64,000 nt of DNA from contig JACPSR010000142.1 of the NCBI GenBank assembly GCA_016193175.1, positions 54,332 through 118,331 on the forward strand, read 5' to 3'. The first letter of the stretch is position 1. Each line of letters opens with the position of its first letter. Positions 989 to 57,531 of this stretch are shown here, piece after piece. The DNA is from Candidatus Omnitrophota bacterium. GTDB taxonomy: Bacteria > Omnitrophota > Gorgyraeia > Aquiviventales > Aquiviventaceae. Both the position numbers and the translations under genes were made by a program. The notes below the pieces were generated by a model. That model saw only the letters and a list, made by a program, of their open reading frames with translations. It did not search any database and was not told the origin of the DNA.

Positions 989-1008
989 CGCATGGGAGGC
1001 GATGCCGT

Positions 1009-1154
1009 GATCCCACGCCCTGCGACGGGCTGCCGCAGGCAGCCCCTGCAACGCGAGCAAGACGGACGGACATGGTGAGGCAAGCGTTCTTCAGTCTAGG
1101 TGGTGTTGCAGCGCCCCGCCCAAGGGCGGGGCAGCCGCAGGGCGTGGGATGATC
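1009..1154 (+). repeat. Palindromic junction element, copy 1 (146 bp)
   Basis: Left arm GATCCCACGCCCTG 1009-1022 and right arm CAGGGCGTGGGATGATC 1138-1154 (13-bp inverted repeat). Hairpins GGGCTGCC-GCA-GGCAGCCC 1027-1045 and CCCCGCCC-AA-GGGCGGGG 1114-1131. Inner stem CTGCAAC/GTTGCAG 1046-1052/1105-1111. The ATG of the next CDS (1149) lies in the right arm. Confidence 0.85.
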
Positions 1155-11418: not shown

Positions 11419-12918
11419 ATGGAACGTGCAGACCACCGAGGTGAAGGTACCCTCTCGCCCCGCGAGGTTGAGATGGTCAATGCCTACGGTCCCTATCATC
11501 ATGCCGTCTGGTCTGCTGGGGGTGTGGCGATCAGCCATGAAGAACGGCTCAGCGGCCGCGGGGAGTTCTTGGTCGATCGGATTCGCGAATCCCTCCTGAA
11601 GCGTTTCACACTCGATGAGATCAAGACGTTTTCCATTCTGGACGTGGGATGCTATGACGGGTGGATCCTGCAGCAACTCAGCGAGTTACCGTTTGCCCGG
11701 TTGGTCGGCATCGAGCCGCGAGAGAAAAATCTCATGAAAGGGCAGAAGGTGAGGGAACTCCTGCGCATTCCCTCGCGCGTTGAGTTCAAAGTCGGCGACC
11801 TTGATTCGCTGGGCGAGGAGACGTTCGACGTGGTCATCTGCGCTGGGTTGCTTCATCATGTCGAATCTACGCCGGCGGCGCTGCGCCGCCTGAGGGCTGT
11901 CTGCCGGCGGTTCCTGTTTATCGAGACGATCTGTCTCTCATCCCGGCATATCACGAAGGCGCTCCAGCGCGAGATTGAGATGAAGGATGTCGTGTACTTT
12001 TATAAGCGCAAAATCTGCGGGGTGACAGGCCAGAAATGGGAGTCATCCTATTCCGATGGGTCAACTACCAGGCTCTGTGTCGTGAACATCCCGTCCTTGG
12101 AATCGCTGACGATGTATCTGGATCTCTGTGGATTTGAAGGGGTGGACATCGTGACGAATCCCGCGGAGTACCGTGCAGCCGTCTGGAGGGATCAACGGGC
12201 CTGCAACGCCGTCTGTCTTTCCGCGGTCATCCGGGCCGAACAGCCGGAAGCCGTTTCTGAGGAAGAGTCCTGGGTGCAGGGGTATGAGAGGGGGCTGGCC
12301 AGAACGATCCTGAAGAAAGCGTACGTGCAACCGCTCTATGAGATCTGGTGTCTGCGAAAGAAACGGGTCCGTCTTCCCGTGTCCTGTTGGACCACCTGGC
12401 TGTATCTCCGTTCGCCAAACCGGTGGGCGGGCCTGTGTCATTCCCTCACGGCCATCTGGTTCAAGGATCGGTATGCGCTGGAGATCGTCAAAAATCTGAG
12501 GTTTAACCCGGAAGACAAGCTCCGTCTGGAATATGGCAAAGTCCTCTGCGACGAGGGCGATACCGAGGGGGCCATCGCGGTTCTGAAGGCCGTGGTGCAG
12601 ACGCTCAACGCGGATTGGTGGTCGGTGTATCGGTCCTTTGCGCTGCTCTCGGACGCCTACGTGCGGATCGGATCGCACGAAGAAGCACAGCGGTATGCCT
12701 CGTTGTGCGCCACCTGCAACCCGAAGTTTCCGCACATCGCTCAGGCGGCACGGGGATTTCCCGAGAGCGACCGACAGGACCACGATGATGGTGCGATGTC
12801 GATGATCCCACGCCCTGCTTCGGTCCCGCCAACGGCGGGACCGTGTTTGCCCACAGCGCATCAACCCATCTTGCAAACACACGCTGCCTGCGGCAGCGGG
12901 AAGCGGGGCGTGGGATGA
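11419..12918 (+). CDS. Class I SAM-dependent methyltransferase with C-terminal helical-repeat (TPR-like) region
   Basis: ILDVGCYDGWILQQL and FDVVICAGLLHHV motifs. The last ~38 codons (12805-12918) are encoded by junction element copy 2, so the true C-terminus is uncertain. An alternative start is at 11473. Confidence 0.6.
   Translation: MERADHRGEGTLSPREVEMVNAYGPYHHAVWSAGGVAISHEERLSGRGEFLVDRIRESLLKRFTLDEIKTFSILDVGCYDGWILQQLSELPFARLVGIEPREKNLMKGQKVRELLRIPSRVEFKVGDLDSLGEETFDVVICAGLLHHVESTPAALRRLRAVCRRFLFIETICLSSRHITKALQREIEMKDVVYFYKRKICGVTGQKWESSYSDGSTTRLCVVNIPSLESLTMYLDLCGFEGVDIVTNPAEYRAAVWRDQRACNAVCLSAVIRAEQPEAVSEEESWVQGYERGLARTILKKAYVQPLYEIWCLRKKRVRLPVSCWTTWLYLRSPNRWAGLCHSLTAIWFKDRYALEIVKNLRFNPEDKLRLEYGKVLCDEGDTEGAIAVLKAVVQTLNADWWSVYRSFALLSDAYVRIGSHEEAQRYASLCATCNPKFPHIAQAARGFPESDRQDHDDGAMSMIPRPASVPPTAGPCLPTAHQPILQTHAACGSGKRGVG
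12802..12918 (+). repeat. Palindromic junction element, copy 2 (117 bp, right arm slightly degenerate)
   Basis: Left arm ATGATCCCACGCCCTG 12802-12817 and right arm GGGGCGTGGGATGA 12905-12918. Hairpins GGTCCCGCC-AAC-GGCGGGACC 12822-12842 and CGCTGCC-TGC-GGCAGCG 12882-12898. Inner stem GTGTTTGC/GCAAACAC 12843-12850/12873-12880. Confidence 0.85.
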
Positions 12919-12934
12919 GCTGCGAAGGGATCAT

Positions 12935-13837
12935 GTGACGATGCGGGTGGTGGTGACCGGATCAGAGAGCTTCATCGGTAGGGAATTGCGACGGCATGGC
13001 CAAGCGAAACAGATCGAATGGGTCGGCCTGGATACGGCCCCCGCTGACGATCCGGGGCACATCCAGATCGACATTCGCTCTCCGGAGCTTGCGGATGTCA
13101 TCCCAGAGGGGCTGGACGCGGTGGTGCACCTCGCGGCCATTTCGCGTGATCAAGATTGTCGTGCCAACCCGCAGCAGGCATTTGATGTCAACGTGTCAGG
13201 GACCCTGAACGTCATACGGGCCGCACGGGAGCGAAACGCCCGCCAATTCATCTTCGCCTCGAGTGAATGGGTGTATGGGGACGTGAGCTCCGATGCCGTC
13301 CAGACGGAAGATCAGCCCATTGCGGTGACGGGGATCCGGTCCGAGTATGCACTGTCCAAACTAGTCGGGGAGCAAGTGCTCCGCATGGCCTTCGCCCAGG
13401 GTCTCTGTCCGGTCACCGTGCTGCGGTTCGGGATTGTGTACGGCCCAAGGCCTTCCAACTGGTCGGCCGTGGAGACGCTCTTTCACGCGGTACGGACACA
13501 ACAGACCGTGACGGTGGGAAGCCTGGAGACGGCAAGACGATTCATCCATGTCTCCGACATCGCTGAGGGGATTGTGAGCGCGATCGGACAGGACGGATTC
13601 CAGATCTTCAATCTCAGCGGGGATCGGCTCATCACCCTGCGTGAAGTAATCGAGCAGAGTGCGTTGTTGCTTGATCGACGCCCCACCGTGGTAGAGCGGG
13701 CGCCGGAAGGCGTGAGCATCCGCAATCCTGATAACCGAAAGGCGAAGCACCTGCTTGGCTGGGAACCCGCCACGGATCTCCCACATGGATTGCGATCCCT
13801 GGACGAGACGCTGCAGACGACCGGTGCGCATGAGTGA
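12935..13837 (+). CDS. NAD-dependent sugar epimerase/dehydratase (SDR)
   Basis: RVVVTGSESFIGREL Rossmann motif and catalytic YALSK. GTG start at 12935 or ATG at 12941. Confidence 0.8.
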   Translation: MTMRVVVTGSESFIGRELRRHGQAKQIEWVGLDTAPADDPGHIQIDIRSPELADVIPEGLDAVVHLAAISRDQDCRANPQQAFDVNVSGTLNVIRAARERNARQFIFASSEWVYGDVSSDAVQTEDQPIAVTGIRSEYALSKLVGEQVLRMAFAQGLCPVTVLRFGIVYGPRPSNWSAVETLFHAVRTQQTVTVGSLETARRFIHVSDIAEGIVSAIGQDGFQIFNLSGDRLITLREVIEQSALLLDRRPTVVERAPEGVSIRNPDNRKAKHLLGWEPATDLPHGLRSLDETLQTTGAHE

Positions 13838-13843
13838 CCACGC

Positions 13844-14005
13844 GATCCCACGCCCTGGCACCGGTAGCGCCTCAATGACCACGAGTGAATACGCGGACAC
13901 CGCAGGCTGGTTCGGCACTGCCGAGGCCGGCCAGCAGATGAGACCAACCGGAGGAGCCGGCCAGGGCCACGCGATGCGTGGCCCGTGCCAGGGCGTGGGA
14001 TGATC
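13844..14005 (+). repeat. Palindromic junction element, copy 3 (162 bp, longest)
   Basis: Arms extend to 15 bp: CCCACGCCCTGGCAC 13847-13861 and GTGCCAGGGCGTGGG 13985-13999. Hairpin GGGCCACGC-GAT-GCGTGGCCC 13964-13984. The downstream ATG at 14000 lies in the right arm. Confidence 0.85.
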
Positions 14006-15762: not shown

Positions 15763-16831
15763 TCGACCCGGGTTGCTTCGCCGGGTCCTGAGGTATTACG
15801 AGGCATGCCAATTTCCGCATCGGGTGCTCGTGGCGGACTCGAGTGACGCGCCTGCGGCGGAGGCGAACCGGCAGATCGTGGAGGCCGTCTCCCGCGCCAT
15901 GCCGGTCGAGTACCGGCGGTATGATTCCGCTCTTGAGGTGCCGATGAAACTGGCGGAAGCGCTCGAAGGGATTCAGTCGACGTACGCGGTGATCGGATCG
16001 GATGACGATTTTTTTGTTCCGAGTGCACTAGAACGAGGGGTGGCGTTTCTGGAATCGCATCCCGACTACGCCCTGGCGCATGGTGAGTCGGCGTATTTCG
16101 TCTTAGAGTCTGACAGGATCGTTTCCGGCCGGTGTGTGGGGGTGGGGCGATATCTGCAACGCACGATCGATCACGCGAGCGGCTCGGAGCGATTGGCGGC
16201 GCATCTCGCGCAATACACCACCACCTTTTATTCAGTCCATCGGACGGAGCAACTGCGCAGGAATTGGCGTCGAGTGGCTGCGCTGCCTCTCGATCATTTG
16301 TTCGACGAGTTGCTCCCGTCATGCCTGTCGCTCATCGAAGGCAAGAGTCAGAAACTCGACGAACTCTACATGGTGAGGCAAATCCACTCTGCGCAAACAG
16401 CACGGACACGGGGTTCCAGAGGCCTCGGTTGGGTGATGGGTCAACGCTGGTCAGAACACTACGCACGATTTCAGGATCTGCTGGCTGAGGAGCTGGTTGG
16501 CCAGGACAGGATCACCATGGAGGCCGCGAGGGAAGTTGCCAAACAGGCGTTCCGGCCCTATGTAGCCCGATATGTGGCCAAAGAAGTGGGGAAGTCGCGT
16601 CAGTTGCACGATAGCGTCGCCATCAGGATCGGGGCGCGAGTGCGCAGGGTGGCACGAGGGATGCCTCTGCTGCGTTGGGGCTGGCACCTGGCACGCGCGA
16701 TCAGGCCGATGTCGCGCACAGCCATCTCGCTTGAGGCGTTGCTTCGCCAGACCTCGCGCTATCACGAAGGATTTATGCCGATCTATCGAGCGGTGACGGC
16801 GCAGAACGGTCACGAGGTCGGTGCGTCATGA
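15734..16831 (+). CDS. Glycosyltransferase family 2-like protein (paralog 1 of a tandem pair)
   Basis: LILPTYNRPGLLRRVLRYY N-terminus (GT-A style) and VADSSD. C-terminal SRYHEGFMPIYRAVT is shared with the next gene. Confidence 0.5.
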   Translation: MLSLILPTYNRPGLLRRVLRYYEACQFPHRVLVADSSDAPAAEANRQIVEAVSRAMPVEYRRYDSALEVPMKLAEALEGIQSTYAVIGSDDDFFVPSALERGVAFLESHPDYALAHGESAYFVLESDRIVSGRCVGVGRYLQRTIDHASGSERLAAHLAQYTTTFYSVHRTEQLRRNWRRVAALPLDHLFDELLPSCLSLIEGKSQKLDELYMVRQIHSAQTARTRGSRGLGWVMGQRWSEHYARFQDLLAEELVGQDRITMEAAREVAKQAFRPYVARYVAKEVGKSRQLHDSVAIRIGARVRRVARGMPLLRWGWHLARAIRPMSRTAISLEALLRQTSRYHEGFMPIYRAVTAQNGHEVGAS

Positions 16832-16941
16832 TCCGCCCTAGCAGTCCCGCCGAAGGCGGGGTCGCCCGACGACCACAGGATTGCAACAGCGGGTGCGACG
16901 GCTCCACCACGGGTGGAGCCCTGCCAGGGCGTGGGATGATC
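16828..16941 (+). repeat. Palindromic junction element, copy 4 (114 bp, left arm carries a 2-nt deletion)
   Basis: Left arm ATGATCCGCCCT 16828-16839 (CA missing) and right arm CAGGGCGTGGGATGATC 16925-16941. Hairpins CCCGCC-GAA-GGCGGG 16846-16860 and GGCTCCACC-ACG-GGTGGAGCC 16900-16920. Upstream stop TGA 16829-16831 lies in the left arm; downstream ATG 16936 lies in the right arm. Confidence 0.85.
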
Positions 16942-18096
16942 ACCCTGTGCGTTCCCACCTACAATCGTCCCGCGTTCATCGAGCGGTTGCTGCGCTACTA
17001 CGCAGCCACCAGCTCTCGGCACTGGATCTTCATCGGCGATTCCAGCGATCCCAATGATGCCAAGCGCACCCAGCGGGCGGTCGCGTCGTGGGGGGGGCGG
17101 CTCCAGGTGCGCTACGAGGCGTGCGCGGGCTTAAGTTCCTGTGCCGCCTTGGAACATGTCAGTCGCCTCATCATGACCCCCTATTGCGCCTTTTTAGGCG
17201 ATGACGATTTCCTCTGCACGAATGGGATCGAGCAGTGCCTGGAGTTTCTGGAGCGCCATCCCAGCTACGGGGCGGCTCATGGAAAAGGCCTCCTGTTCCA
17301 AACCGAAACCGGAGCTGCGTACGGACCGATTGGGATGGTCAGGCCGTATCCGCAGGTCGTGCTGAATGCGGATTCTGCTGCCGGGCGACTGCGAGACGTA
17401 TTGACCGCACGCGTCGGCGGGCTGCTGTATTCGGTGCATCGGACTCACACGTGGCGGGCCATGTTCGCGGGGATCGGGCGGCTCTCAGGCACGACGAATA
17501 CGAACATCTTCAAAGATGAGCTCATCGCGGTTTGCCTCTCCGCCATTCGCAACACGGTGCAGGAACTCGACTGTTTGTACCTGATTCGTCACACACATGA
17601 GGCGATCTATAAGTACCCCACTATCTACGATTGGGTGACAGATCCGATGTGGTTTCCGTCGTTCCAGGCATTCCGTGATCGCCTGGTCACGGAACTGATG
17701 GAGCAGGACCGTCTGCATGAGCCAGACGCGCAGGCCGTCTTCAAGGATGTGTTCTGGTCCTTTCTGGCTCATGTCCTCATGAACGGTTGGCAGCGATCCC
17801 GGCAACCAGCGCGAGTGAAACCAGTGAGTCGGCTGCAGGTTCTGGCCAAGCGCGTGCCGGGCCTACAGCGCGGGTGGCAAAAGGTGTTGGCCATTCGGCA
17901 GCGGTGGCAAGACGAACTGTCGCTGCCGGCGCTGCTTCACCCCTCCTCACCGTACCATGACGATTTCATGCCGATTTATGAGGCGGTGACCCACGCGCCC
18001 GCGGACGCACTCGTGGCGGTGGCGTCCGAGCGCCACCTGGTGTCCAGCAAGGGCGCGTTGGATGCTGGTGCGGTGCTGAGAGAGCCCCATGGCTGA
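16936..18096 (+). CDS. Glycosyltransferase family 2-like protein (paralog 2 of a tandem pair)
   Basis: MITLCVPTYNRPAFIERLLRYY, IGDSSD and C-terminal SPYHDDFMPIYEAVT parallel the preceding gene. The open frame extends to the ATG at 16828 through the repeat. Confidence 0.5.
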   Translation: MITLCVPTYNRPAFIERLLRYYAATSSRHWIFIGDSSDPNDAKRTQRAVASWGGRLQVRYEACAGLSSCAALEHVSRLIMTPYCAFLGDDDFLCTNGIEQCLEFLERHPSYGAAHGKGLLFQTETGAAYGPIGMVRPYPQVVLNADSAAGRLRDVLTARVGGLLYSVHRTHTWRAMFAGIGRLSGTTNTNIFKDELIAVCLSAIRNTVQELDCLYLIRHTHEAIYKYPTIYDWVTDPMWFPSFQAFRDRLVTELMEQDRLHEPDAQAVFKDVFWSFLAHVLMNGWQRSRQPARVKPVSRLQVLAKRVPGLQRGWQKVLAIRQRWQDELSLPALLHPSSPYHDDFMPIYEAVTHAPADALVAVASERHLVSSKGALDAGAVLREPHG

Positions 18097-18271
18097 ACGG
18101 GATCAGACGCGGGTGTTGATTGTTGGGTGCCGACAAGTGGGCAGTCGGCATCTGCAGGCCGTCGCGACGTTGCCACACGTTGCTGAGATTGACGTCATCG
18201 ATCCGCGCGCTGCGGCGACGCTGACGAGGCACACAGAATCGGTGTTTGGCTACGAAGGAGGAACTGGATGA
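18089..18271 (+). pseudogene. N-terminal remnant (about 40 aa) of a Rossmann oxidoreductase, paralogous to the 5' end of CDS 21227-22231
   Basis: MAERDQTRVLIVGCRQVGSRHLQAVATLPHVAEIDVIDPR versus MAESDNARVLIVGCGELGSRHLQAVATLPDVAEIDVVDSR. Both have the same ATGGCTGA junction. The 60-codon ORF then diverges and stops. Confidence 0.65.
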
Positions 18272-20342: not shown

Positions 20343-21234
20343 GGCAGCCGAAGTTCGTATCGCCGCACCATCCATCGACGCTGGAGAACTCTATGATGTG
20401 GCGGCGGCTGGTGGGGAGTTCTGGTTCTACCAAGATCTCCGAGACAAGAGCCCTCGGTGGTATGATGAATGCTATTTCAACCCAGACTGCGTGTTGCTGT
20501 TTCCGGAGACCCGGCAGGTCTACTGGTTTGATCTCGACCACGTCTCGGTGGGGGCGGAGGCGACCGGTACCCGGCGGCACGTCTTGGGGAACCTCTGGAG
20601 GAAAAAATTCGCCTTCGCCTCCGATGGTAATCGACTGAGTATCCTGCCCTGTGCAGTGACAGGCCTGTGGAGGGGCAGGCCCACGGCGATGCGGCCGCAG
20701 GAGACAGAAGGCATCGCCTACGTGGTCGGCGATCGCTATCGGAGAGTATGCGAGATCAGGGCCGATGGCACGATGGATCCTCAAGAGCGACGCGAGCTCG
20801 ATGAGGCCTGGCGTCAGCACCGGAAGTTGAAGGTGGGGGTACCACTGGGCCGGAGCGTGCTCATCTATGGGATCCGGCTGGCGTTCCAGCAAAAGGGGGT
20901 CTACAGTTTTGCTTCGAAAACCGTGGTCATCCCATCCCCGCAGGCGCGGGCGTTCTCATGGGAGCAGGCATCACTTGGGAACATCTGCGTGGGATCGGAT
21001 GGCTCCTGTTCCATCTACCGTGAACAGACCTCGCGGCCGGGTCTCCTGCAGGTCCTCGCAACCTATGCTCCCACGGTGCTGCAACGGGCTAGCGGCATGT
21101 TGAACCGATCCCCGGATGGGTTCAAGGAATGGGTGCGGTCGCTGGCGCGGCCGATGCTTCGGTGTCTGCTCACATTTGAAGTCGACCATGCGCGGTGCCC
21201 GTTCACGATCTTTGTGAGGGAGGCCGATGGCTGA
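20332..21234 (+). CDS. Hypothetical protein (300 aa), no domain recognised
   Basis: Long ORF with balanced, protein-like composition. Its stop lies in an ATGGCTGA junction with the next gene. It sits between the two remnant-bearing junctions. Confidence 0.5.
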   Translation: MTPEAAEVRIAAPSIDAGELYDVAAAGGEFWFYQDLRDKSPRWYDECYFNPDCVLLFPETRQVYWFDLDHVSVGAEATGTRRHVLGNLWRKKFAFASDGNRLSILPCAVTGLWRGRPTAMRPQETEGIAYVVGDRYRRVCEIRADGTMDPQERRELDEAWRQHRKLKVGVPLGRSVLIYGIRLAFQQKGVYSFASKTVVIPSPQARAFSWEQASLGNICVGSDGSCSIYREQTSRPGLLQVLATYAPTVLQRASGMLNRSPDGFKEWVRSLARPMLRCLLTFEVDHARCPFTIFVREADG

Positions 21235-22231
21235 GTCGGACAACGCTCGGGTGCTGATCGTCGGGTGCGGCGAGCTTGGCAGTCGTCATCTGCAGGCCGT
21301 CGCGACGCTCCCAGACGTGGCGGAGATTGACGTCGTGGACTCACGCACCGAGGCGTTGAGGCAGGGACAGGAACGCCTCGTTGAGGTCACGGAGCGCAAC
21401 CCCCAAACGCGGTATCGTTGGCTATCCTCGTTGGAGGAGGCTGCTGGTGGGGGTCAACTGTGCATTGTGGCTACCCAGGCGGAAGGGCGCTGTCAGCTCG
21501 TGCGGGATGTGGTTGAGCGGCTAGGGTACGGAGGGTTTCTTTTGGAGAAGATCGTCGGCCAGTCCATCGAGGAAATTGAAGGTCTCGAAACGTTCTTGGG
21601 GGTGCGGGGGTGTACCGCCTGGGTCAACCTGAAAACACGGACGTACCCCATCTATCAGCACATCAAGCAGCGGCTGGAGCCTGGCGAGCCCATCCAATTG
21701 ACGTCGCTCGGCGGTAATCACGGTCTGGCCACGAACGGCGTGCATACGGCGGATTTGTTTGCGTTCTTCGATGGAACCGAGGAGATCGAGTTGGTTGGCT
21801 GCCGCGTTGATCCGATCCTGCATCCGTCAAAGCGGGGCGAGCGTCTCTTTGACCTCAGCGGAACCCTCCAAGGGGCCACGAAGAACGGGAGCCATTTTAT
21901 GCTGTCGTATGCGAAGGACCACAAGCAGTCGGAGCAGATCACGATTGCGGGTCGGCGCTATCGGTGCATCGTCGATCAGAGCGAGAGGAAGCGGTGGGTG
22001 GTCGAAAGCCACGTGGACACGGGTTGGGTGTGGCAGCCGGTCCCATCGACAGAGAACCTTCGGGTCAGCCTGATGAGCCGGCAATTTGTCCGGGAGATCC
22101 TCCATACCGGAACCTGCAGCCTGCCGACGCTCAAGGAGTCCTTGGTGGCGCACCGGTTCATCTTCGGGGCCATTCAGCCGGTGTTCAGTCAGCTGATGGG
22201 ACATGAGGTTGAGTTATGTCCGGTGACGTGA
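21227..22231 (+). CDS. Rossmann-fold oxidoreductase, Gfo/Idh/MocA-like
   Basis: RVLIVGCGELGSRHLQA N-terminal dinucleotide fold and FLLEKIVG (a variant of the EKP motif). Confidence 0.55.
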   Translation: MAESDNARVLIVGCGELGSRHLQAVATLPDVAEIDVVDSRTEALRQGQERLVEVTERNPQTRYRWLSSLEEAAGGGQLCIVATQAEGRCQLVRDVVERLGYGGFLLEKIVGQSIEEIEGLETFLGVRGCTAWVNLKTRTYPIYQHIKQRLEPGEPIQLTSLGGNHGLATNGVHTADLFAFFDGTEEIELVGCRVDPILHPSKRGERLFDLSGTLQGATKNGSHFMLSYAKDHKQSEQITIAGRRYRCIVDQSERKRWVVESHVDTGWVWQPVPSTENLRVSLMSRQFVREILHTGTCSLPTLKESLVAHRFIFGAIQPVFSQLMGHEVELCPVT

Positions 22232-23280
22232 CGGGGTCGGCGCTTGAGGCGCGCGCGCCGTGCTCTGCGTCGGAGCTTGCAGCCGCCATCGCCCGGGCGG
22301 ATGTGGCGGGTGCCGTTGCGACCGTGGTCGGAATCGGCACGATGGGCAAACACTTCGTGAGCGCGCTCCGGGCGCTCGGGGTGAAGCGTGTGCGCCTCTG
22401 CGCTCGTTCGCCAGGACCCTTGGAGTCGTTCCGAGCGTTCGAGGGGTTCGAAACGTTCGCCGGCGGCATTGAGCGGTTCGTCGGCCGACCGGCTCCTGGC
22501 GAGCTGGCGATTATCGCGACCCCGACGGCCTTGCTCATCCCGGCCGCCCGGCGGCTGGCGTCGCTGGGCTTCCGTCGGCTGCTGATTGAGAAACCTGTCT
22601 CGCTCTGGCCGGCGGAGATTGAGCGGCTGGCCGAGGAGCTTGAGGGCGAGGGGGTCGAGGCGTCCTGCGCCTACAACCGCGTCGCGTATCCCTCGTGTCA
22701 AGAAGTGCGGGCTCGTGTCGCCCGCGAGGGCGGGGCCACCTCGTGTACCTATACGTTCACCGAGCGGATCAAGCCGGATTGGCCGCAGACGTTTTCCGCG
22801 GAAGAGCTGGCGCGGTGGGGCATCGCCAACAGCTTGCATGTGATGAGCATGGCGCATGGGGTGATCGGCTGGCCCGCGTCCTGGTCGGCCCATCGTTCCG
22901 GCAGCCTGCCGTGGCACCCGACCGGAGCCGTCTTTATGGGGTCCGGCGTCTCGGATCGTGGGATCCCCTTTGGGTATCATGCGGATTGGGGTTCCACTGG
23001 CCGCTGGTCCGTCGAGGTCCATACCGCGGCCGCGTCGTATCGGTTGTGTCCCCTCGAACAAGTGTTTCGCCGGACATCGACGACGAGCGGCTGGACAGAC
23101 ATTCCGGTCGCGGCCTTCGCGCCGCAGGTGAAGGCGGGAATCACGGAGCAGGTGGCGGCGATGTTGTGTGAGGAGATCGGGGAGCGGGTGCCGCTGGTGT
23201 CGCTGCGCGCGGCCGCCTCGCTGTCGAGATACGCTGAAGCGGTCTTCGGCTATGACTCGGCGGAGACAGAGGCGCCATGA
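22216..23280 (+). CDS. Rossmann-fold oxidoreductase, Gfo/Idh/MocA-like
   Basis: VVGIGTMGKHFVSAL, IATPTALLIPAARRL and LLIEKPVS (EKP motif). Confidence 0.55.
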   Translation: MSGDVTGSALEARAPCSASELAAAIARADVAGAVATVVGIGTMGKHFVSALRALGVKRVRLCARSPGPLESFRAFEGFETFAGGIERFVGRPAPGELAIIATPTALLIPAARRLASLGFRRLLIEKPVSLWPAEIERLAEELEGEGVEASCAYNRVAYPSCQEVRARVAREGGATSCTYTFTERIKPDWPQTFSAEELARWGIANSLHVMSMAHGVIGWPASWSAHRSGSLPWHPTGAVFMGSGVSDRGIPFGYHADWGSTGRWSVEVHTAAASYRLCPLEQVFRRTSTTSGWTDIPVAAFAPQVKAGITEQVAAMLCEEIGERVPLVSLRAAASLSRYAEAVFGYDSAETEAP

Positions 23281-23325: not shown

Positions 23326-23413
23326 GCCAACCGTGTCATCCTTCGTTGAGACAGCGAGGCGGCTGTGCGCAGCCTATGAGGCGATGTACCTCGACGGTGG
23401 CGTGGCATGGTGA
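23326..23413 (+). pseudogene. C-terminal remnant of a paralog of CDS 18982-20076
   Basis: ARRLCAAYEAMYLDGGVAW* versus LDRLCADYEATYLDGGVRW*. DNA similarity runs from 23363, matching 20026 onward. It lies in otherwise non-coding 23281-23406. Confidence 0.55.
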
Positions 23414-24423
23414 TGGGCAGAGTGGCGACGCGGGTCGGGGTGCGGCGGGTGGCCGTCGTCGGAACGGGAAGCGCTGGCATGAGGCATCTGGATGTCCTAC
23501 GTCAACTCGACGGCGTTGAGTCGATCGCCGTGCCCAAGCGTCCCGAGCGTGCCGCAGAACTGGCCGGAGCTGGCCAGGCGGCGTTGCGCGATTTGCGCGA
23601 GGTGGTGGCGTCCGGTGCCACGCGCGCGATCATCGCGACGGATACCGGCTGTCACCTTGAAGATGGGCTTGCAGCGCTGGGGCAGGGGTTGGACCTGCTC
23701 ATCGAAAAGCCGCTGGCGACCAACGCCACCGACGCGGCACGGCTTCGCGCGGCGGCTGTCCACGCCGGGCGAAGACTATTCGTTGGTTGCGTCTTACGGT
23801 TTTCGGAATCCCTCAACGCCTTCCACTCGTTGCTGAAGCAGATCGGCCGGGTGCACTCGGTGCGCATCGAATGCCAGTCATATCTGCCGGACTGGCGGCC
23901 CGCCCGCCCCTATCAGGAGTCCTATGTGGCGCGTCGCGTAGAAGGCGGGGTCTTGTTAGATCTCATTCATGAGATCGACTACGCGGGGTGGATCTTCGGG
24001 TGGCCCAAGGCGGTTCAGGCGAGGCTACGCAACGTGGGGCGCTTGAGCATCGCGGAAGAGGAAACCGTTGATCTGCTGTGGGAAACGCCCATGGCCGGCT
24101 GCGTCTCGATGAGCTTGGATTATCTGACCCGCCCCCCACGCCGCGTGACGCGGGCCTGCGGGGAACGGGGGACCGTGGAGTGGGATGGCATCGCGGGGAC
24201 GGCGAGCTTGGCCCTTGCGGGACAAGCGCCGATGGTCGTCCGCTCTTCACAGACACGCGAGGAGATGTTCCTCGCCCAGGTGCGCGCGTTCCTCGAAGCG
24301 TGTGGTGACGGGCGCGATCCGCGACTGGCCACAGCTGAGGATGGCGTGAGGGCTCTGGCGGTCTGTGACGCAGCACGCCGGTCCTCTCAGAGCCGGCAGG
24401 AGGAGCCGGTGGTGATCCTATGA
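23407..24423 (+). CDS. Gfo/Idh/MocA family oxidoreductase (PtmF-like position in a nonulosonic acid cluster)
   Basis: RVAVVGTGSAGMRHL, LLIEKPLA (EKP motif) and a C-terminal alpha/beta domain. Directly upstream of neuA. Confidence 0.75.
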   Translation: MVMGRVATRVGVRRVAVVGTGSAGMRHLDVLRQLDGVESIAVPKRPERAAELAGAGQAALRDLREVVASGATRAIIATDTGCHLEDGLAALGQGLDLLIEKPLATNATDAARLRAAAVHAGRRLFVGCVLRFSESLNAFHSLLKQIGRVHSVRIECQSYLPDWRPARPYQESYVARRVEGGVLLDLIHEIDYAGWIFGWPKAVQARLRNVGRLSIAEEETVDLLWETPMAGCVSMSLDYLTRPPRRVTRACGERGTVEWDGIAGTASLALAGQAPMVVRSSQTREEMFLAQVRAFLEACGDGRDPRLATAEDGVRALAVCDAARRSSQSRQEEPVVIL

Positions 24424-28961: not shown

Positions 28962-30505
28962 TTCTGGTAACGATTGTCAGACCGCCCGTGGTGTTCTCCC
29001 GGCGGTCCTATAGCGTCGCCATCGTGCCCCCGCTTGGGCCCGCCTATTTAGCGGCGGCGCTGCGAACAGCAGGGCATCAGGTGAGGATCGTTGATGCCGT
29101 GGGGGGACGGATTTCGCACATCGGGGCCACCGCACGGCCGAACCTCCTCTATCAGGGGCTCTCGATCGACGAGATGATCGCCGGCATGGACCCCGAGACG
29201 CAGCTCATGGCCGTGTCGGCCATGTTCTCACAGGATTGGCCGCATGTCGAAGTCTTGATCGCGAAGATTGCGCAGCGGTTTCCAGAGGTCCCGATCGTGG
29301 TCGGAGGAGAACATGCCACCGCCGCGTGGGACTACATCTTGGACACCTCGCCAGCGATCACCTGTGTCGGTCTGGGCGAGGGGGAAGAGACCATTTGTGA
29401 TCTGGCCAGGTGGGTCGAACACGGAGGCGACCTGAGCGCCATCCCGGGCATCGCCTACCGGCAAGCCGGGCGTCCCGTCATGACGTCGCCGCGCAAACGG
29501 ATCATGGCCGTCGATGACATTCCCCCTCCGGCCTGGAATTTGGTTCCGCTCGAGGCCTATCTGGACGGCGGCTACGGCCACGGGGTCGATTTGGGACGGA
29601 GCATGCCGATCTTGGCCACACGCGGATGCCCATTCCAGTGCACGTTCTGCTCAAACCCGGCGATGTGGACGACCCGCTATGTGATGCGGGATGTCGGCAA
29701 AGTCGTCGATGAAATTGCGCGCTATCTGCGCGAGTATCGCGCGACGAACGTCGATTTTTACGACCTCACCGCCATCATCAGGAAAGATTGGATCATGAAG
29801 TTCTGCGACGAAATTCTGCACAGGCGGCTGACACTCACCTGGCAGCTTCCGAGCGGAACGCGCAGCGAAGCCCTTGACGCCGAAGCGCTGCGCAAAATGT
29901 TTGAGGCTGGATGCCGCAACCTGACCTATGCCCCTGAGAGCGGGTCCGAGCGGACATTGAAGGCGATCAAGAAAGAAGTGCGCTTGCCAAAGATGGTCAG
30001 ATCGATCAAAGCGGCGAAGCGCGCGGGCATTCATCTCAAGTGTAACCTGATCATCGGCTTTCCGAAGGAACGGCGCCGTGACCTCTTTCGCACGATCTGG
30101 TTTGCCTTGAAGATGGCCTGGATGGGCGTCGATGACGCCCCGCTCTTTCTGTTTTCGCCCTACCCCGGAAGCGAGTTGTATCACTATCTGCGCTCAACCG
30201 GAGCGATCCAGAAGATGGACAACGACTATTTTGAGTCGCTGCTCTGCTTTATGGATCTGTCCAAGTCGAGCCGCTATTGTGAGCGCATCGGGCCTCTGGA
30301 GCTCAACATCTACCGATGTGTCGGGATGTCCCTCTTCTATGTGCTGAGCTACCTGCGGCACCCCGCACGAATCGTGCGGACGATCCGGAACCTCTGGCAC
30401 AGCGAGTCAGCCACCGTGTTTGAGCAACGGCTCATTGAGATGAAGCGACGAGTGTCCATGGCGATGGCAGGCCGGTCGGTCGAATCGGCGGTGAATTCTC
30501 GATGA
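28958..30505 (+). CDS. B12-binding domain radical SAM enzyme (class B)
   Basis: N-terminal cobalamin-binding-like Rossmann region and radical SAM cluster motif RGCPFQCTFCSNP. Confidence 0.8.
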   Translation: MILVTIVRPPVVFSRRSYSVAIVPPLGPAYLAAALRTAGHQVRIVDAVGGRISHIGATARPNLLYQGLSIDEMIAGMDPETQLMAVSAMFSQDWPHVEVLIAKIAQRFPEVPIVVGGEHATAAWDYILDTSPAITCVGLGEGEETICDLARWVEHGGDLSAIPGIAYRQAGRPVMTSPRKRIMAVDDIPPPAWNLVPLEAYLDGGYGHGVDLGRSMPILATRGCPFQCTFCSNPAMWTTRYVMRDVGKVVDEIARYLREYRATNVDFYDLTAIIRKDWIMKFCDEILHRRLTLTWQLPSGTRSEALDAEALRKMFEAGCRNLTYAPESGSERTLKAIKKEVRLPKMVRSIKAAKRAGIHLKCNLIIGFPKERRRDLFRTIWFALKMAWMGVDDAPLFLFSPYPGSELYHYLRSTGAIQKMDNDYFESLLCFMDLSKSSRYCERIGPLELNIYRCVGMSLFYVLSYLRHPARIVRTIRNLWHSESATVFEQRLIEMKRRVSMAMAGRSVESAVNSR

Positions 30506-32025
30506 CGCGAGGAGGAGGTTGGCGGCTCCCGCTGCTGCTCTATCTGGCGGGCCTGCTCCATTGGATCGGCTTCCTGTATCTCGATGTCACGCCCTCCGGC
30601 CAGGAGCGGGAACTGGTGTCCATAGCGCTCCGGAGTCCTGAGACGCTCTTGAAGCGTCCGAACTTCGGGATGGAAGACGGCGTCTACATCGGCGACGTCT
30701 GGTTCGTCTATGAGCGCATGCTCACGGCGCTCCAGCAGGCGGTTCGCAGCCGCCAGATCCCCTACCATCTGCCTGGCCTGAGCGGCTATGAGATGATGCC
30801 AACCACCGCCTCGCCGGTCGGCGATCGGCTCTTCGGTTTTCCCAATGGCTGGCCCTGGTCGCCGGAGGCGCTCCTCTTGGCCGTCCTGGATCTTCCAACC
30901 TTCGTCATCGTGACGTGGCTCATCATGTACTCGGTGGGATTTGCGGGGTGCCTCTTGATCCGGCGCCAGTACAGTCTGGGGCCGATGGCCTTCACGTTCC
31001 TGGCGGTGCTGTTCCATCTGAACGGTTGGATCACCACCCACATGACGACCAAGATGCCCGATAACACCGGCTACTATCTGAGCCCGTATCTCGTGCTGCT
31101 CCTGCTGAGGGCCGGGGAAGTGGCCCCCACGGATCGCTACGCGCAGCGGCGTCTCGGGTTATGGATCGGGTTGGTGATGGCGCTGATGTGGTGGCAGGGG
31201 TCGTGCCATCCCTTCATCCACTGGCTCACCATGCTGGGCTTCTGGGGCATTGTGAATTGGAGGAAATGGCGGGTCACGGTGGTGAGTGTGGTGAGCGCGT
31301 TTGCCCTGGCGGCGTTTCGCGTGATTCCGCCTGCGCTCAGTTGGGGCATGAAGCACCGCTATCATGTGGACAATCCCGCGATCATGGGGTTCTGGTCATT
31401 CGATCAATACATCGACGCGCTCGCGGTGTGCCACCCGTTCATCCCCGACGGGGGGTGGGAGCAATTCAATTGCTACGTCAGCGTGTTTGGCTTATGGGCG
31501 ATTCTCTATCTCGCGTTCTGGGCACCATGGAACGGCTCGAGGTGGGTGCGCCTGCGTCCCTGGCAGTCCTTGCTCATTCCCTCCGTGATCTTGGCGGTGA
31601 TGTCGTTCCGTCACATGAAGAGCGTGCTCATTCCGAATTGGATCCCCCTCTTTAACGCCGAGGCCTACACAGGACGATACATGATGATCCCCCTGGTCGT
31701 GTGGATCATTGTCGCGAGTATCAACCTCCAGGGCGCGGTCGAGGCGTTCTGGTCGCAGCGGCGGCTGCGATGGCTCATGGTCAGCGGGCTTGGCGTGATC
31801 GCGGCGTCCTTGCTGAACCATTCGCGCTTGTGGCGCATCTGGATGGCGACAAAGTTTGCGCACTGGGGTGGCTATGGGCCCACGCTGCCTGCGCGGTTGG
31901 CGAACGACATGACCGACCGCCTGTACATCAACGCGGTCGACCTGAGTCTGGGCATCAGCCTGGTCGCCTTGGTCGTGGTGATCGCCTTGTTGGTCGTGCC
32001 GCGCAAGCGACAGGGCGTGGGATGA
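30502..32025 (+). CDS. Polytopic membrane protein of unknown function (polymerase, ligase or GT-C candidate)
   Basis: 507 aa with many hydrophobic helices. ATGA junctions on both sides. The last codons QGVG* coincide with a solo junction-element arm. Confidence 0.55.
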   Translation: MTRGGGWRLPLLLYLAGLLHWIGFLYLDVTPSGQERELVSIALRSPETLLKRPNFGMEDGVYIGDVWFVYERMLTALQQAVRSRQIPYHLPGLSGYEMMPTTASPVGDRLFGFPNGWPWSPEALLLAVLDLPTFVIVTWLIMYSVGFAGCLLIRRQYSLGPMAFTFLAVLFHLNGWITTHMTTKMPDNTGYYLSPYLVLLLLRAGEVAPTDRYAQRRLGLWIGLVMALMWWQGSCHPFIHWLTMLGFWGIVNWRKWRVTVVSVVSAFALAAFRVIPPALSWGMKHRYHVDNPAIMGFWSFDQYIDALAVCHPFIPDGGWEQFNCYVSVFGLWAILYLAFWAPWNGSRWVRLRPWQSLLIPSVILAVMSFRHMKSVLIPNWIPLFNAEAYTGRYMMIPLVVWIIVASINLQGAVEAFWSQRRLRWLMVSGLGVIAASLLNHSRLWRIWMATKFAHWGGYGPTLPARLANDMTDRLYINAVDLSLGISLVALVVVIALLVVPRKRQGVG

Positions 32026-34812: not shown

Positions 34813-35889
34813 ATGTACACGGACCTGACCACGTTGTGCATCGGACGAGCGAGTTCGTTACGAGCCGCCATAGCCCAGATGGACCGCAGCCGATTTGGCA
34901 TCGTGCTGGTGACCGACGACCAGCGACGCCTGGTGGGCACGATCACCGATGGGGATATCCGCCGCGCCATTTTGGCGAACGTGGATCTTGAGCAATCGGT
35001 GAACGTGCTCCTGGCGCGAAAGGCAACAACTCGCTTTGCGAAGCCCATCACGGCCGCGGCGGGCTCCGATCCCAATCTCTACCTGGCACTCCTGAAACAG
35101 CACAACATCCTTCACCTTCCGCTGATCGACGATGAGCAGCACGTCGTGGGGATGGTGACGAGGGATGAATTTCTGCCCAACGAGGTGCTGCCGCTCCACG
35201 CAGTGGTCATGGCGGGAGGGCTCGGTAGTCGTCTGCACCCCCTCACCGAAGAGCTCCCGAAACCGATGCTGCCGATCGGCAATCGTCCATTGCTCGAGAT
35301 CATCATCGCGCAGCTACGAGAGGCCGGCATTCGTCGCGTCCAGGTCACGACGCACCACAAGCCGGAGAAGATTGAGGAGCATTTTGGCGATGGGAAGGAC
35401 TTCGGGATCAACCTCTCCTATGTCGCAGAAGACCGACCGTTAGGAACAGCGGGGGCCCTGGGATTGCTCGGCGTTCCCAAGGAGACGACGTTGGTCATGA
35501 ACGGCGATATCCTGACGCAGGTGGATTTCCGGGCGATGCTGGTCTACCACCGGGAGTACGGGGCGGACCTCACGATGGCAGTGCGCCAGTACGACCTCAA
35601 GGTGCCCTACGGCGTGGTCGAGTGCGAGGATTCGGTGGTCCGTTCCCTCAGCGAAAAACCCACGGTGGGATTTTTTGTCAACGCGGGCATTTATCTGCTG
35701 GAGCCTCCCGTCTACCAATTCATCCCGAACGGCCAACCGTTCGACATGACGGAGTTGATCCAGTGCCTGCTCAAGGCGGGGAGGATGGTCGTCAGCTTCC
35801 CGGTCCGGGAATACTGGCTTGATATCGGAGAGCACGCGGGGTATGAGCGGGCAGAGCAAGACGTTCGCAACGAGAAGGTGCGGGTATGA
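34813..35889 (+). CDS. CBS-domain sugar-phosphate nucleotidyltransferase (PtmE/HddC-like)
   Basis: Tandem CBS region (LVGTITDGDIRR, VVGMVTRDEF), then NTP-transferase motif AVVMAGGLGSRLHPLTEELPKPMLPI. Confidence 0.8.
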   Translation: MYTDLTTLCIGRASSLRAAIAQMDRSRFGIVLVTDDQRRLVGTITDGDIRRAILANVDLEQSVNVLLARKATTRFAKPITAAAGSDPNLYLALLKQHNILHLPLIDDEQHVVGMVTRDEFLPNEVLPLHAVVMAGGLGSRLHPLTEELPKPMLPIGNRPLLEIIIAQLREAGIRRVQVTTHHKPEKIEEHFGDGKDFGINLSYVAEDRPLGTAGALGLLGVPKETTLVMNGDILTQVDFRAMLVYHREYGADLTMAVRQYDLKVPYGVVECEDSVVRSLSEKPTVGFFVNAGIYLLEPPVYQFIPNGQPFDMTELIQCLLKAGRMVVSFPVREYWLDIGEHAGYERAEQDVRNEKVRV

Positions 35890-36002
35890 TCCCACGCCCT
35901 AGCTGGGCTCCGCCTAAAGGCGGAGCCGCGAAACGGTGCCCCGTGTTTCTGTCATTGATGTTTCGCCCCACCAATAGGCGGGGCAGCCAGGGCGTGGGAT
36001 GA
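35886..36002 (+). repeat. Palindromic junction element, copy 5 (117 bp)
   Basis: Left arm ATGATCCCACGCCCT 35886-35900 and right arm CAGGGCGTGGGATGA 35988-36002. Hairpins GGCTCCGCC-TAAA-GGCGGAGCC 35906-35927 and CCCCACC-AATA-GGCGGGG 35966-35983. Inner stem CGAAAC/GTTTCG 35929-35934/35960-35965. Upstream TGA 35887-35889 and downstream ATG 35999 lie in the arms. Confidence 0.9.
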
Positions 36003-42607: not shown

Positions 42608-42719
42608 TCCCACGCCCTCGCAGCCTCGCCTTCGGCGAGGTCGCCAACGAGACGAAATGTCAAGAGGGGCTGGCGACGGCTCCGCCTACGGCGGAGCCCT
42701 GCCAGGGCGTGGGATGATG
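42605..42719 (+). repeat. Palindromic junction element, copy 6 (115 bp)
   Basis: Left arm TGATCCCACGCCCT 42605-42618 and right arm CAGGGCGTGGGATGATG 42703-42719. Hairpins CCTCGCC-TTC-GGCGAGG 42624-42640 and GGCTCCGCC-TAC-GGCGGAGCC 42678-42698. Inner stem GTCGCCA/TGGCGAC 42640-42646/42671-42677. Confidence 0.9.
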
Positions 42720-56780: not shown

Positions 56781-57531
56781 GGAACGCTTCAATCTGCGCG
56801 GAAAAGTCGCCGCGATCATTGGGGGCGCGGGGTACCTGTGTTCCACGCTGGCGGAGGCGATGGCGGAAGCCGGCATATCGGTCTTCATCCTCGACGTGGC
56901 TGAGCCGGTGCGGGGCAACCCGGTACCGACGGGTACCATGCTGCCGTGCCTTCGCTGCGATGTCACCTCGAAGGATGATCTCATTCGCTGTCGGGACCAG
57001 ATTCAGCGAGAGCACGGCCGGATCGATATCCTGCTCAACGGCGCCGGGACAAACGCCCCCACCCCATTCTTCGACATCTCGCTCGAGGAATTCGACCGCA
57101 TCATGCGAGTGAACCTGCTGGGAACCCTCCTAAGTTGCCAAGTGTTCGGCGAAGTTATGGTGCGCCAGCGTGCGGGGAGCATCATCAATTTCACCTCTGT
57201 ATCCAAAGACCCCCCCCTTTCGAAAGCGTTCGTCTACTCCACGGCCAAGGCGGGCGTGGCCAATCTGACGCAGAACCTGGCGCGGGAGTGGGCGCCGTTC
57301 AACGTGCGGGTGAACGCGCTGCGGCCAGGGTTCTTCCCAACCGCCTGGAGCATGCGGCACTTCATTGACGAGCCGCGCAAGGCCGCCATCCTGAACCACA
57401 CTCCCATGGGTCGGTTTGGTCAGCCCGAGGAGCTCATCGGCGCGGTGCTGTGGCTGGCCTCCGATGCGGCCAGCTTCGTGACTGGTTCCATCGTGACGGT
57501 GGATGGCGGTTTCACGGCGATGACCATTTAA
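56767..57531 (+). CDS. Short-chain dehydrogenase/reductase
   Basis: AAIIGGAGYLCSTLA, YSTAKAG catalytic motif and C-terminal VTGSIVTVDGGFTA. Confidence 0.85.
   Translation: MPTVEERFNLRGKVAAIIGGAGYLCSTLAEAMAEAGISVFILDVAEPVRGNPVPTGTMLPCLRCDVTSKDDLIRCRDQIQREHGRIDILLNGAGTNAPTPFFDISLEEFDRIMRVNLLGTLLSCQVFGEVMVRQRAGSIINFTSVSKDPPLSKAFVYSTAKAGVANLTQNLAREWAPFNVRVNALRPGFFPTAWSMRHFIDEPRKAAILNHTPMGRFGQPEELIGAVLWLASDAASFVTGSIVTVDGGFTAMTI

Follow-up and report, generated by a model that had tools for sequence, protein, structure and literature searches.

Why does the open reading frame (ORF) of a methyltransferase gene run through a dispersed inverted repeat, and why does an ORF of seven codons stand between it and the next gene? 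The question is raised by a 64-kb stretch of a Candidatus Omnitrophota genome (contig JACPSR010000142.1, positions 54,332 to 118,331; hereafter the window), a glycan-biosynthesis cluster whose genes apparently all lie on the plus strand, with many ATGA overlaps between genes. The window holds six copies of the repeat and one solo arm, with the ends TCCCACGCCCTG...CAGGGCGTGGGA and direct TGA repeats on either side. Copy 2, the one entered by the methyltransferase ORF, is probably one insertion of a mobile element, resembling a miniature inverted-repeat transposable element (MITE), that occurs in Omnitrophota and related uncultured bacteria and that has been kept as a translatable relay. The inverted ends of the window repeat are ATCCCACGCCCTG...CAGGGCGTGGGAT; the 11-nt arm has 14 matches in the window at no more than one mismatch (12 exact) against 3.0 expected, a number reached by none of 100 shuffles.

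Copy 2 is likely to have displaced the 3' end of the methyltransferase gene

The sequence-only reading of this locus had described a methyltransferase ORF (11419-12918) that runs through copy 2 and acquires a tail of about 37 residues. We reproduced this observation: the ORF gains 37 aa, IPRP...KRGVG, from copy 2. The same reading had proposed a comparison of the methyltransferase C-terminus with orthologs, and this comparison identifies the tail as a by-product of insertion. Orthologs (53-67% identity; mostly 430-470 aa) end a few residues past a CNPxFP motif, about 20 residues before the element, indicating that the 37-aa tail is not ancestral. With positions 12806-12918 (the element plus one TGA) excised, the methyltransferase frame reads ...GAMSMSCEGIM* and stops 2 nt short of the ATG at 12941. 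Because removal of the element restores a methyltransferase 3' end in this way, we place the insertion seven codons ahead of the native stop, in an ATGA that lies inside the gene but out of its frame, and take the bridge ORF that follows copy 2 to be the displaced native 3' end, now opened by an ATG that the insertion rebuilt. At this site the methyltransferase would have lost 6 residues and gained the tail, and the 7-codon remnant would carry ribosomes to the old stop, 2 nt from the start of the downstream epimerase gene.

The bridge ORF had previously been read as MSCEGIM* (12915-12938) and interpreted as a new ORF whose stop overlaps a GTG start at 12935. The peptide stands, and the interpretation does not: a displaced native end followed by a start at 12941 is more likely. 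The epimerase gene most likely starts at ATG 12941, not at GTG 12935; on contig L001 of the Omnitrophota metagenome-assembled genome (MAG) GCA_016192565.1, which is 99.9% identical to the window, the gene after copy 2 is called at 298 aa, which fits ATG 12941.

Contig L001 differs from the window at two places in this region. It is without 36 nt (12 aa) inside the methyltransferase gene (12128-12157 region), and the left arm of its copy 2 carries a synonymous A-to-T change (ATCCCTCGCCC) that breaks one stem pair.

Most copies across the family keep one frame open from the left ATG to the right TGA

We scanned metagenome contigs for pairs of exact 11-nt arms lying 80-140 nt apart in any orientation, and found at least 120 loci among the matches listed. 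These loci and a few genome loci give 148 raw copies, 115 of them unique when oriented; all family counts below refer to the matches listed. We define the relay length class as copies whose span from ATCCC to GGGAT leaves a remainder of 1 when divided by 3, such that the frame of the left ATG ends on the right TGA. This class accounts for 122 of the 148 raw copies and 101 of the 115 unique oriented copies (p = 8e-34). Of the clusters formed at 85% identity, 62 of 70 belong to it (p = 1e-21), as do 33 of 38 formed at 75% (p = 1e-11). Spans cover 86-316 nt at intervals of 3 nt, and the length of the short element (TCCC...GGGA) ranges from 84 to 170 nt. Copies with variant arms, in which the changes are compensatory, keep the same length rule.

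The relay frame is interrupted by a stop in 9 of the 101 relay-class copies, leaving 92 stop-free, as compared with 30-54 of 101 in each of the other five frames. The difference is significant by Fisher tests both against frame +1 (43/101, p = 5e-8) and against the equivalent frame, frame 0, of the unused strand (54/101, p = 4e-12). Length modulo 3 over many copies and the frequency of stops in this frame were among the checks put forward in the sequence-only reading, and both came out strongly on the side of translation. The placement of the copies is also consistent across the family: the left codon is ATG in 94 of 115 listed copies, the right ATG opens at least 90 codons in 85 of 99, and the left TGA terminates the upstream frame in 65 of 95. 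Among 79 copies with long flanks, 49 lie at perfect stop/start junctions, 44 of which are in frame and stop-free, and in about 5% the upstream ORF continues through the element, as happens at copy 2. The statistics show that surviving copies are almost always in frame and are depleted of stops in that frame, in whichever orientation they inserted.

A single-arm scan of genome contigs returned mostly chance 15-mer matches in unrelated phyla, the relevant loci being L011, L027, L054, L076, L086, L090 and L099. We found no element in the viral contigs. One locus (L147, 890-1186) carries a tandem array of two mini copies that share a single ATGA between the units, which amounts to a multi-step relay. 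At three further loci (L170, 5031-5140; L203, 6871-6980; L217, 12939-13047) the same 11-nt arms are flanked by TGTTCC...GGAACA, forming a longer palindrome, instead of by TGA repeats. These copies span 109-110 nt, the length rule is broken by two of them, and they may represent a different lineage or context.

The predicted structure buries the rebuilt start codon

The copies are predicted to fold as a cloverleaf, with an outer stem of 16-19 bp formed by the inverted ends and three hairpins within it. RNA folding energies range from -62 to -80 kcal/mol, with z-scores of -2.9 to -6.7; copy 2 has a minimum free energy of -77.3 kcal/mol (z = -6.7). In an 18-member alignment, 95.3% of cells are paired, and sliding the partners lowers this to 38-45%. 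Both sides change in eleven pairs, and the covariation score, 0.21, compares with 0.07 in shuffles, with none of 500 shuffles as high. The rebuilt ATG sits in the outer stem without a Shine-Dalgarno-like sequence upstream, which would give a mechanistic reason why only a ribosome translating through the element could expose it.

These features suggest how an insertion could be tolerated. As filled and empty sites show, the element lands in 5'-ATGA-3', usually the start codon of a gene and often also the stop of the preceding gene. The left ATGA keeps the original site of initiation or re-initiation, and the last A of the element, together with the second TGA, rebuilds an ATG for the downstream gene. 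The old start site would drive a short leader ORF through the element, and translation would melt the structure of about -75 kcal/mol that buries the rebuilt ATG. The ribosome would then terminate at the UGA overlapping the rebuilt AUG and re-initiate on the host gene. Insertions that broke the relay would be purged by selection on that gene.

Translation through the element might instead be needed to prevent polarity caused by Rho-dependent termination or by decay of untranslated mRNA, rather than to hand ribosomes to the rebuilt ATG. The length and stop statistics would be the same in either case, and copy 2 has kept its frame though the downstream start at 12941 is not at the right ATGA. 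A frame that serves only against polarity need not end exactly on ATGA, yet the class that does so dominates, its 101 copies outnumbering the out-of-frame run-on class (11) about ninefold and the downstream-fused class (3) about 34-fold. The position of the rebuilt ATG in the outer stem, with no Shine-Dalgarno-like sequence before it, also argues for a hand-over of ribosomes, and we regard protection from polarity alone as unlikely.

We attach a still lower probability to the view that the copies are purely structural repeats of the repetitive extragenic palindrome (REP), bacterial interspersed mosaic element (BIME) or NTS type, acting as mRNA stabilisers, terminators or nuclease sites, with an open frame that is incidental to GC-rich sequence. 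The great stability of the cloverleaf and its covariation are what such repeats would have, long random ORFs are common in the DNA of the window, at 62% GC, and the repeats of the Ssn/NTS system are a precedent for sites of a single-stranded DNA nuclease (PMC11893778). Structure alone cannot produce the modulo-3 rule, which holds in 33 of the 38 most inclusive clusters, nor a depletion of stops that is specific to one of six frames and matches the direction of the host gene. Structure and translation are moreover not mutually exclusive. The sequence-only reading had suggested relay translation rather than, or in addition to, a role as RNA structure; since the cloverleaf and its covariation are also real, "in addition to" is the right wording. 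Comparison among copies thus supports the relay-ORF reading alongside an RNA structure.

The constraint is on translatability, not on the peptide

The open frames, the ATG that begins most of them, and the conserved end motifs IPRP and QGVG would also be expected if the mini-ORFs were genuine genes for small proteins with functional peptides. The conserved ends are, however, simply the inverted repeats, and the interiors differ wholly between subfamilies. The same subfamilies, and hence one family of DNA, occur in both orientations relative to host transcription and TGA, and the resulting peptides are unrelated. Within subfamilies, third codon positions show no excess of variability, and the peptides of short copies had no Pfam matches. 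The use of both orientations and the lack of a third-position excess indicate a constraint on translatability and not on the peptide, and functional small proteins are a highly implausible explanation of the family.

The element proper lies between repeats of a single TGA

Among the listed copies the flanks are TGA...TGA in 65 and TCA...TCA in 58, such that 123 of 148 have direct repeats; two are mixed. An A precedes the left TGA in 94 of 115, and no other flanking position is comparably biased. The terminal inverted repeats (TIRs) are 13-19 bp long across the family. We compared filled sites with empty or orthologous unfilled sites in three cases (L213/L192, L210/L222, and L153 with window position 57531). 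In the empty allele of all three, ATGA occurs once, where the downstream gene has its start codon, indicating that the element proper is TCCC...GGGA, that one TGA is repeated, and that the terminal A of the element regenerates the ATG.

That the elements are not mobile at all, being spacers or leader modules that the operons of one gene cluster inherit vertically, has next to no probability: all window copies do lie within one glycan-biosynthesis cluster, but the filled and empty alleles at orthologous sites already refute it, homology between loci is limited to the element with unrelated flanks, copies elsewhere have neighbours as varied as dxr/rseP, ruvC, two-component, toxin-antitoxin and SDR genes, and some copies are in tandem.

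At one locus (L171, 1101-1206) the element lies between dxr and rseP and the Dxr ORF reads through it, as the methyltransferase ORF does at copy 2. Simple excision there would fuse dxr to rseP in frame, which implies a secondary change near the end of dxr. We also considered whether read-through cases are split single genes; this was not supported, the copies at L171 and L212 joining unrelated genes (dxr, rseP).

A full-length form encodes a GIY-YIG nuclease

Read in the relay frame, a 316-nt copy on contig L054 codes for a GIY-YIG nuclease (MIPRPGTGG...GRLCQGVG*; Pfam PF01541). Full-length copies of this kind are 316-319 nt long, have the same ends, TGA repeat and slot as the short copies, and encode a 107-aa single-domain nuclease whose N- and C-termini are the inverted repeats and whose start and stop codons come from the target. 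A protein search returned about 40 relatives of 106-108 aa, nearly all starting with MIPRP (or MIPQP) and ending with QGVG (or QVVG). PF01541 is the sole precomputed Pfam domain in all but one of them, and is the only match in three nucleases that we scanned directly (E = 4e-12 to 1e-14). No NCBIfam model matched the nuclease; the nearest solved structures are the UPF0213 proteins 1ywl (E = 6e-8) and 1zg2 (E = 5e-6), and SLX1. A search with a nuclease profile matched 8362 proteins at E <= 0.001, presumably the broad GIY-YIG superfamily, with 278 at 1e-10 and 3 at 1e-30. Among the best 150 of the 8362, which we examined, there is a distinct clade with an N-terminal extension of about 15 aa and a C-terminal extension of about 20 aa.

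Seven full-length copies could be placed in their genomic contexts. ATGA overlaps occur on both sides in four (L241, L242, L243, L247), on the upstream side in L244 and on the downstream side only in L240. In L244 (1152-1594) the nuclease gene is followed by a tandem 118-nt mini copy that has the same variant arms and shares a single ATGA with it, again amounting to a relay in several steps. The neighbours of full-length loci are unrelated, including a histidine kinase and response regulator, a ParE toxin, a signal peptidase and glycan genes. In all seven the TIR is 16 nt long, and it is perfect or, in L244, has a single mismatch. Compensatory double changes occur in these TIRs (ATCCCACAACCTGTCGC / GCGACAGGTTGTGGGAT), and in the corresponding peptides IPQP is paired with QVVG. 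Across about 57 relatives, down to about 40% identity, the terminal peptide pairs include IPRP/QGVG (24), IPPP/QVVG (6), IPQP/QVVG (5), TPPP/QVVG (4) and IPSP/QVMG (1). The two termini mostly co-vary as a DNA palindrome predicts, and some pairs, such as IPPP/QVGG, misfit a perfect palindrome.

Some distant GIY-YIG relatives (among P0167-P0286) start with MTPPP and end with QVVG. These termini imply the ends CCCCACCACCTG / CAGGTGGTGGGG, which would rebuild GTG, not ATG, for the downstream gene.

From the shared ends and slot we infer that the GIY-YIG nuclease may mobilise both the short copies and the full-length form. Ends are all that the short copies share with the nuclease gene, so that a pairing of autonomous with non-autonomous elements is likewise a matter of deduction. 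We rejected the possibility that the short copies are simple recent deletions of the nuclease form, there being no residual internal homology. More broadly, and only tentatively, since we hold it to be somewhat less than evenly probable, a clade of single-domain GIY-YIG nucleases (Ssn/UPF0213-like) would mobilise a previously undescribed class of translation-dependent elements. Neither a promoter nor a ribosome-binding site, and neither a start nor a stop codon, would belong to these elements themselves. They would target ATGA start codons, borrow start and stop from the duplicated target, and be expressed by termination and re-initiation from the host operon, and they would spawn MITE-like derivatives that selection keeps translatable in either orientation.

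Several points weigh against our reading of copy 2, its family and the nuclease. About 12% of copies break the length rule, including copies 1 and 4 of the window, whose downstream genes presumably still work. The in-frame fraction at perfect junctions, 44/49, is just modestly above that among copies without an abutting long upstream ORF, 11/16, which is a trend only. The sample is biased, consisting of listed matches with exact arms 80-140 nt apart, most of which come from a small number of groundwater and sediment datasets. That ribosomes re-initiate at ATGA is an assumption in an uncultured phylum. Instead of a true duplication, the TGA repeat could reflect insertion 3' of TGA in the strand-specific manner of IS200/IS605. 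As to the nuclease, a profile hidden Markov model of it found no homology beyond the termini in translations of the short copies, and GIY-YIG enzymes are hydrolytic nucleases that are not known as transposases.

The family combines features of known repeat systems

Our searches of the literature turned up no description of this element family. It combines two known ideas, a relay like that of MIRUs (the interspersed repetitive units of mycobacteria) and a pairing of nuclease and repeat like that of Ssn; MIRU is functionally the closest system, and Ssn/SRM has the closest enzyme-repeat architecture.

MIRUs, attributed to Supply and colleagues (1997), are described as inserting at start codons, with an internal ORF coupled to the gene by a 4-nt overlap that minimises the effect on expression (PMC12548453). 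They are short, dispersed, apparently mobile repeats with ATGA-type 4-nt coupling and tandem units in operons, all of which recur here (PMC12548453). The elements of this study likewise lie at gene starts and junctions and contain a co-directional internal ORF with a 4-nt stop/start overlap. The comparison is one of function: unlike MIRUs, these elements belong to another phylum, have a TIR of 13-17 bp, a cloverleaf and a TGA duplication, and are used in both orientations. They also have a protein-coding full-length form, the GIY-YIG nuclease, in the same slot, and to our knowledge no nuclease partner has been described for MIRUs.

Ssn is a single-domain GIY-YIG nuclease of single-stranded DNA with hairpin repeats of its own on either side, "NTS-ssnA-NTS, identical to an IS" (insertion sequence), and its SRM/NTS (dRS3) repeats are local hairpins of 20-50 nt whose mobility has only been hypothesised (PMC11893778). 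The resemblance lies in a GIY-YIG-only nuclease of about 100 aa with inverted repeats on both sides of the gene, and in a cognate repeat that is dispersed in many copies, is rarely inside genes and co-varies with the nuclease; the Ssn paper makes no mention of start or stop codons, reading frames or target duplication (PMC11893778). Our nuclease, at 106-107 aa, falls within the range of about 90-110 aa for a single-domain protein, and its repeat both flanks the gene and is dispersed (6-7 short copies in 64 kb). The SRM motif is a local hairpin of 20-50 nt, whereas the arms here are at least 60 nt apart and enclose a whole ORF: we found no arm pair closer than 60 nt, as a short SRM-like form would have, in 676 kb of element-bearing loci.

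The seg and mob genes of T4-like phages are free-standing, promoter-less GIY-YIG or HNH cassettes between polycistronic genes, and the mobE start overlaps the upstream stop (UAAUGA) (PMC2988022). As in our full-length form, a nuclease cassette without promoter is intergenic, and the overlap in some cases suggests translational coupling (PMC2988022). The phage enzymes are multi-domain (in the seg type, GIY-YIG with a DNA-binding domain), home between genomes rather than spreading to many sites within one, and have no TIR, target duplication or short non-autonomous derivatives, whereas the nuclease here is a single domain of 107 aa within a TIR and a TGA repeat.

Classical MITEs with their insertion-sequence partners, REP/BIME with REP-associated tyrosine transposases (RAYT), and IS200/IS605 elements all consist of many non-autonomous copies and an enzyme gene with the same ends; such systems are discussed in PMC11893778. 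The present family has the TIR (in those systems, TIR or subterminal hairpins), a short fixed target that is duplicated, small size, numerous non-autonomous copies, and a gene for a small enzyme bounded by the same ends; with that gene, as in MITEs and their partners, the short copies have only the ends in common. It differs in that the only coding form found, the putative enzyme, is a GIY-YIG hydrolase and not a DDE or HUH transposase, in that the element lies entirely within one ORF, and in that its non-autonomous copies are constrained in reading frame. Rickettsia palindromic elements (RPEs), in work attributed to Ogata and colleagues in 2000, are said to enter ORFs in frame and to be translated within the host protein. 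The resemblance is that both are palindromic repeats compatible with being translated and that both contribute peptide segments to host proteins, copy 2 doing so for the methyltransferase. In contrast to RPEs, which are multiple-of-3 insertions without a stop of their own, the elements here add 3n+2 bases (the span plus one), supply both a stop of their own and a new start, and occupy gene boundaries; at copy 2 the methyltransferase is truncated and not extended in frame.

Other copies and features of the window

The features of the window are collected in Table 1. Our measurements of all six copies agree with the lengths given in the sequence-only reading, as do the open, multiple-of-three spans of copies 2, 3, 5 and 6, the interruption of copy 1 (for which we count two in-frame stops), the 2-nt left-arm deletion that accounts for the length of copy 4, and the 38-codon ORF of copy 5 with ATGA at both ends. 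That reading had counted six copies; the six stand, and a seventh occurrence, the solo right arm, had been missed.

Table 1. Features of the window, with the span of each copy (left-arm ATC to right-arm TGA).
Feature	Coordinates	Strand	ATC-to-TGA span	Description
Copy 1	1008-1152	+	1010-1152, 143 nt, two in-frame stops	Decayed: wrong length class, two relay-frame stops; downstream E1-beta gene starts at right-arm ATG 1149
Methyltransferase ORF	11419-12918	+		499 codons, reads through copy 2; Pfam class I methyltransferase domains and a weak TPR match
Left TGA target copy (copy 2)	12803-12805	+		Inside ATGA 12802-12805; out of frame for the methyltransferase
Copy 2 proper	12806-12915	+	12805-12918, 114 nt, without stop	110 nt; TIR TCCCACGCCCTG / CGGGGCGTGGGA; three internal hairpins, cloverleaf
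Right TGA copy (copy 2)	12916-12918	+		Stop of the methyltransferase-plus-tail ORF; overlaps regenerated ATG 12915
Bridge ORF MSCEGIM*	12915-12938	+		7 codons; probably the displaced original last methyltransferase codons, judged from element removal
NAD-dependent epimerase gene	12941-13837	+		Likely start ATG 12941 (MRVVVTGSESFIG); Pfam Epimerase match from residue 5 of the GTG-12935 ORF
Copy 3 relay ORF	13830-14003	+	13845-14003, 159 nt, without stop	58 codons, ATG 13830 to TGA 14001-14003
Copy 4	16828-16939	+	16831-16939, 109 nt	Left ATGA overlaps upstream stop; 2-nt left-arm deletion; GT2 gene's own start is ATG 16936
Solo right arm ACAGGGCGTGGGATGA	32005-32025	+		Last four codons and stop of ORF 30502-32025, plus ATG of a HisF-like gene
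Copy 5	35886-36002	+	35889-36002, 114 nt, without stop	38-codon relay ORF; ATGA overlaps with nucleotidyltransferase stop and epimerase start; textbook case
Copy 6	42604-42717	+	42607-42717, 111 nt, without stop	Relay frame open; left codon CTG (nearest in-frame GTG 42568); right ATGA starts GFO/IDH/MocA gene

Copies 1 and 3-6 sit at gene starts or at junctions of co-directional genes. Pfam domains begin shortly after the ATG of the right arm, at residue 3 for Epimerase, 4 for both GT2 and His_biosynth, and 13 for Transket_pyr, indicating that these ATGs are real gene starts. The in-frame ATG of copy 3 lies 8 nt inside the 3' end of the upstream gene, and the ends of its ORF, IPRPGTGSA...RGPCQGVG, match those of the full-length nuclease gene beyond the core TIR. 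The length class of copy 4 puts its left ATG in frame with the GT2 gene, giving an ORF (16828-18096) with an N-terminal extension. At the solo right arm the 11-nt match lies at 32013-32023; orthologs of the 507-aa membrane protein encoded by ORF 30502-32025 align up to a basic tail that precedes QGVG*, so only QGVG* is derived from the element, and this arrangement suggests a deletion remnant or footprint. Eight assemblies with an identical 507-aa protein have the same arrangement and provided no empty site for the window copies. Rfam at gathering thresholds matched no family in the window, and we counted 21 candidate start/stop ATGA overlaps across it.

Further observations concern other parts of the window. 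Contig L001 is without 55 nt inside the GT2 gene (17072-17125 region), which shifts the frame and splits the called gene. A 141-nt direct repeat (76% identity) occurs at 18077-18217 and 21215-21355. Its first copy, which falls in the gap that follows the GT2 gene, is a 59-codon ORF similar to the N-terminus of a Gfo/Idh/MocA-type oxidoreductase, and is probably a gene-fragment remnant; its second copy is the start of the gene at 21227-22231. A 24-nt inverted repeat (23202-23225 / 23350-23373, 92% complementary) spans the junction between 22216-23280 and 23407-24423, and is unrelated in sequence to the element family.

Implications for compact genomes

The elements suggest a way for selfish DNA to invade compact genomes: by landing on a start codon and staying translatable, an insertion would be nearly invisible to operon expression. 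The GIY-YIG nuclease found in the same slot is a candidate enzyme for this class of repeats. For annotation, the elements create spurious C-terminal tails, as on the methyltransferase, N-terminal extensions, as on the GT2 gene after copy 4, and orphan ORFs of 35-60 codons in MAGs. They may also be regarded as natural, structure-rich "bicistronic design" leaders, testable as engineering parts. If a nuclease of this clade does mobilise translation-dependent elements, the same logic could explain the spread of "coding palindromes" of the MIRU and RPE types.

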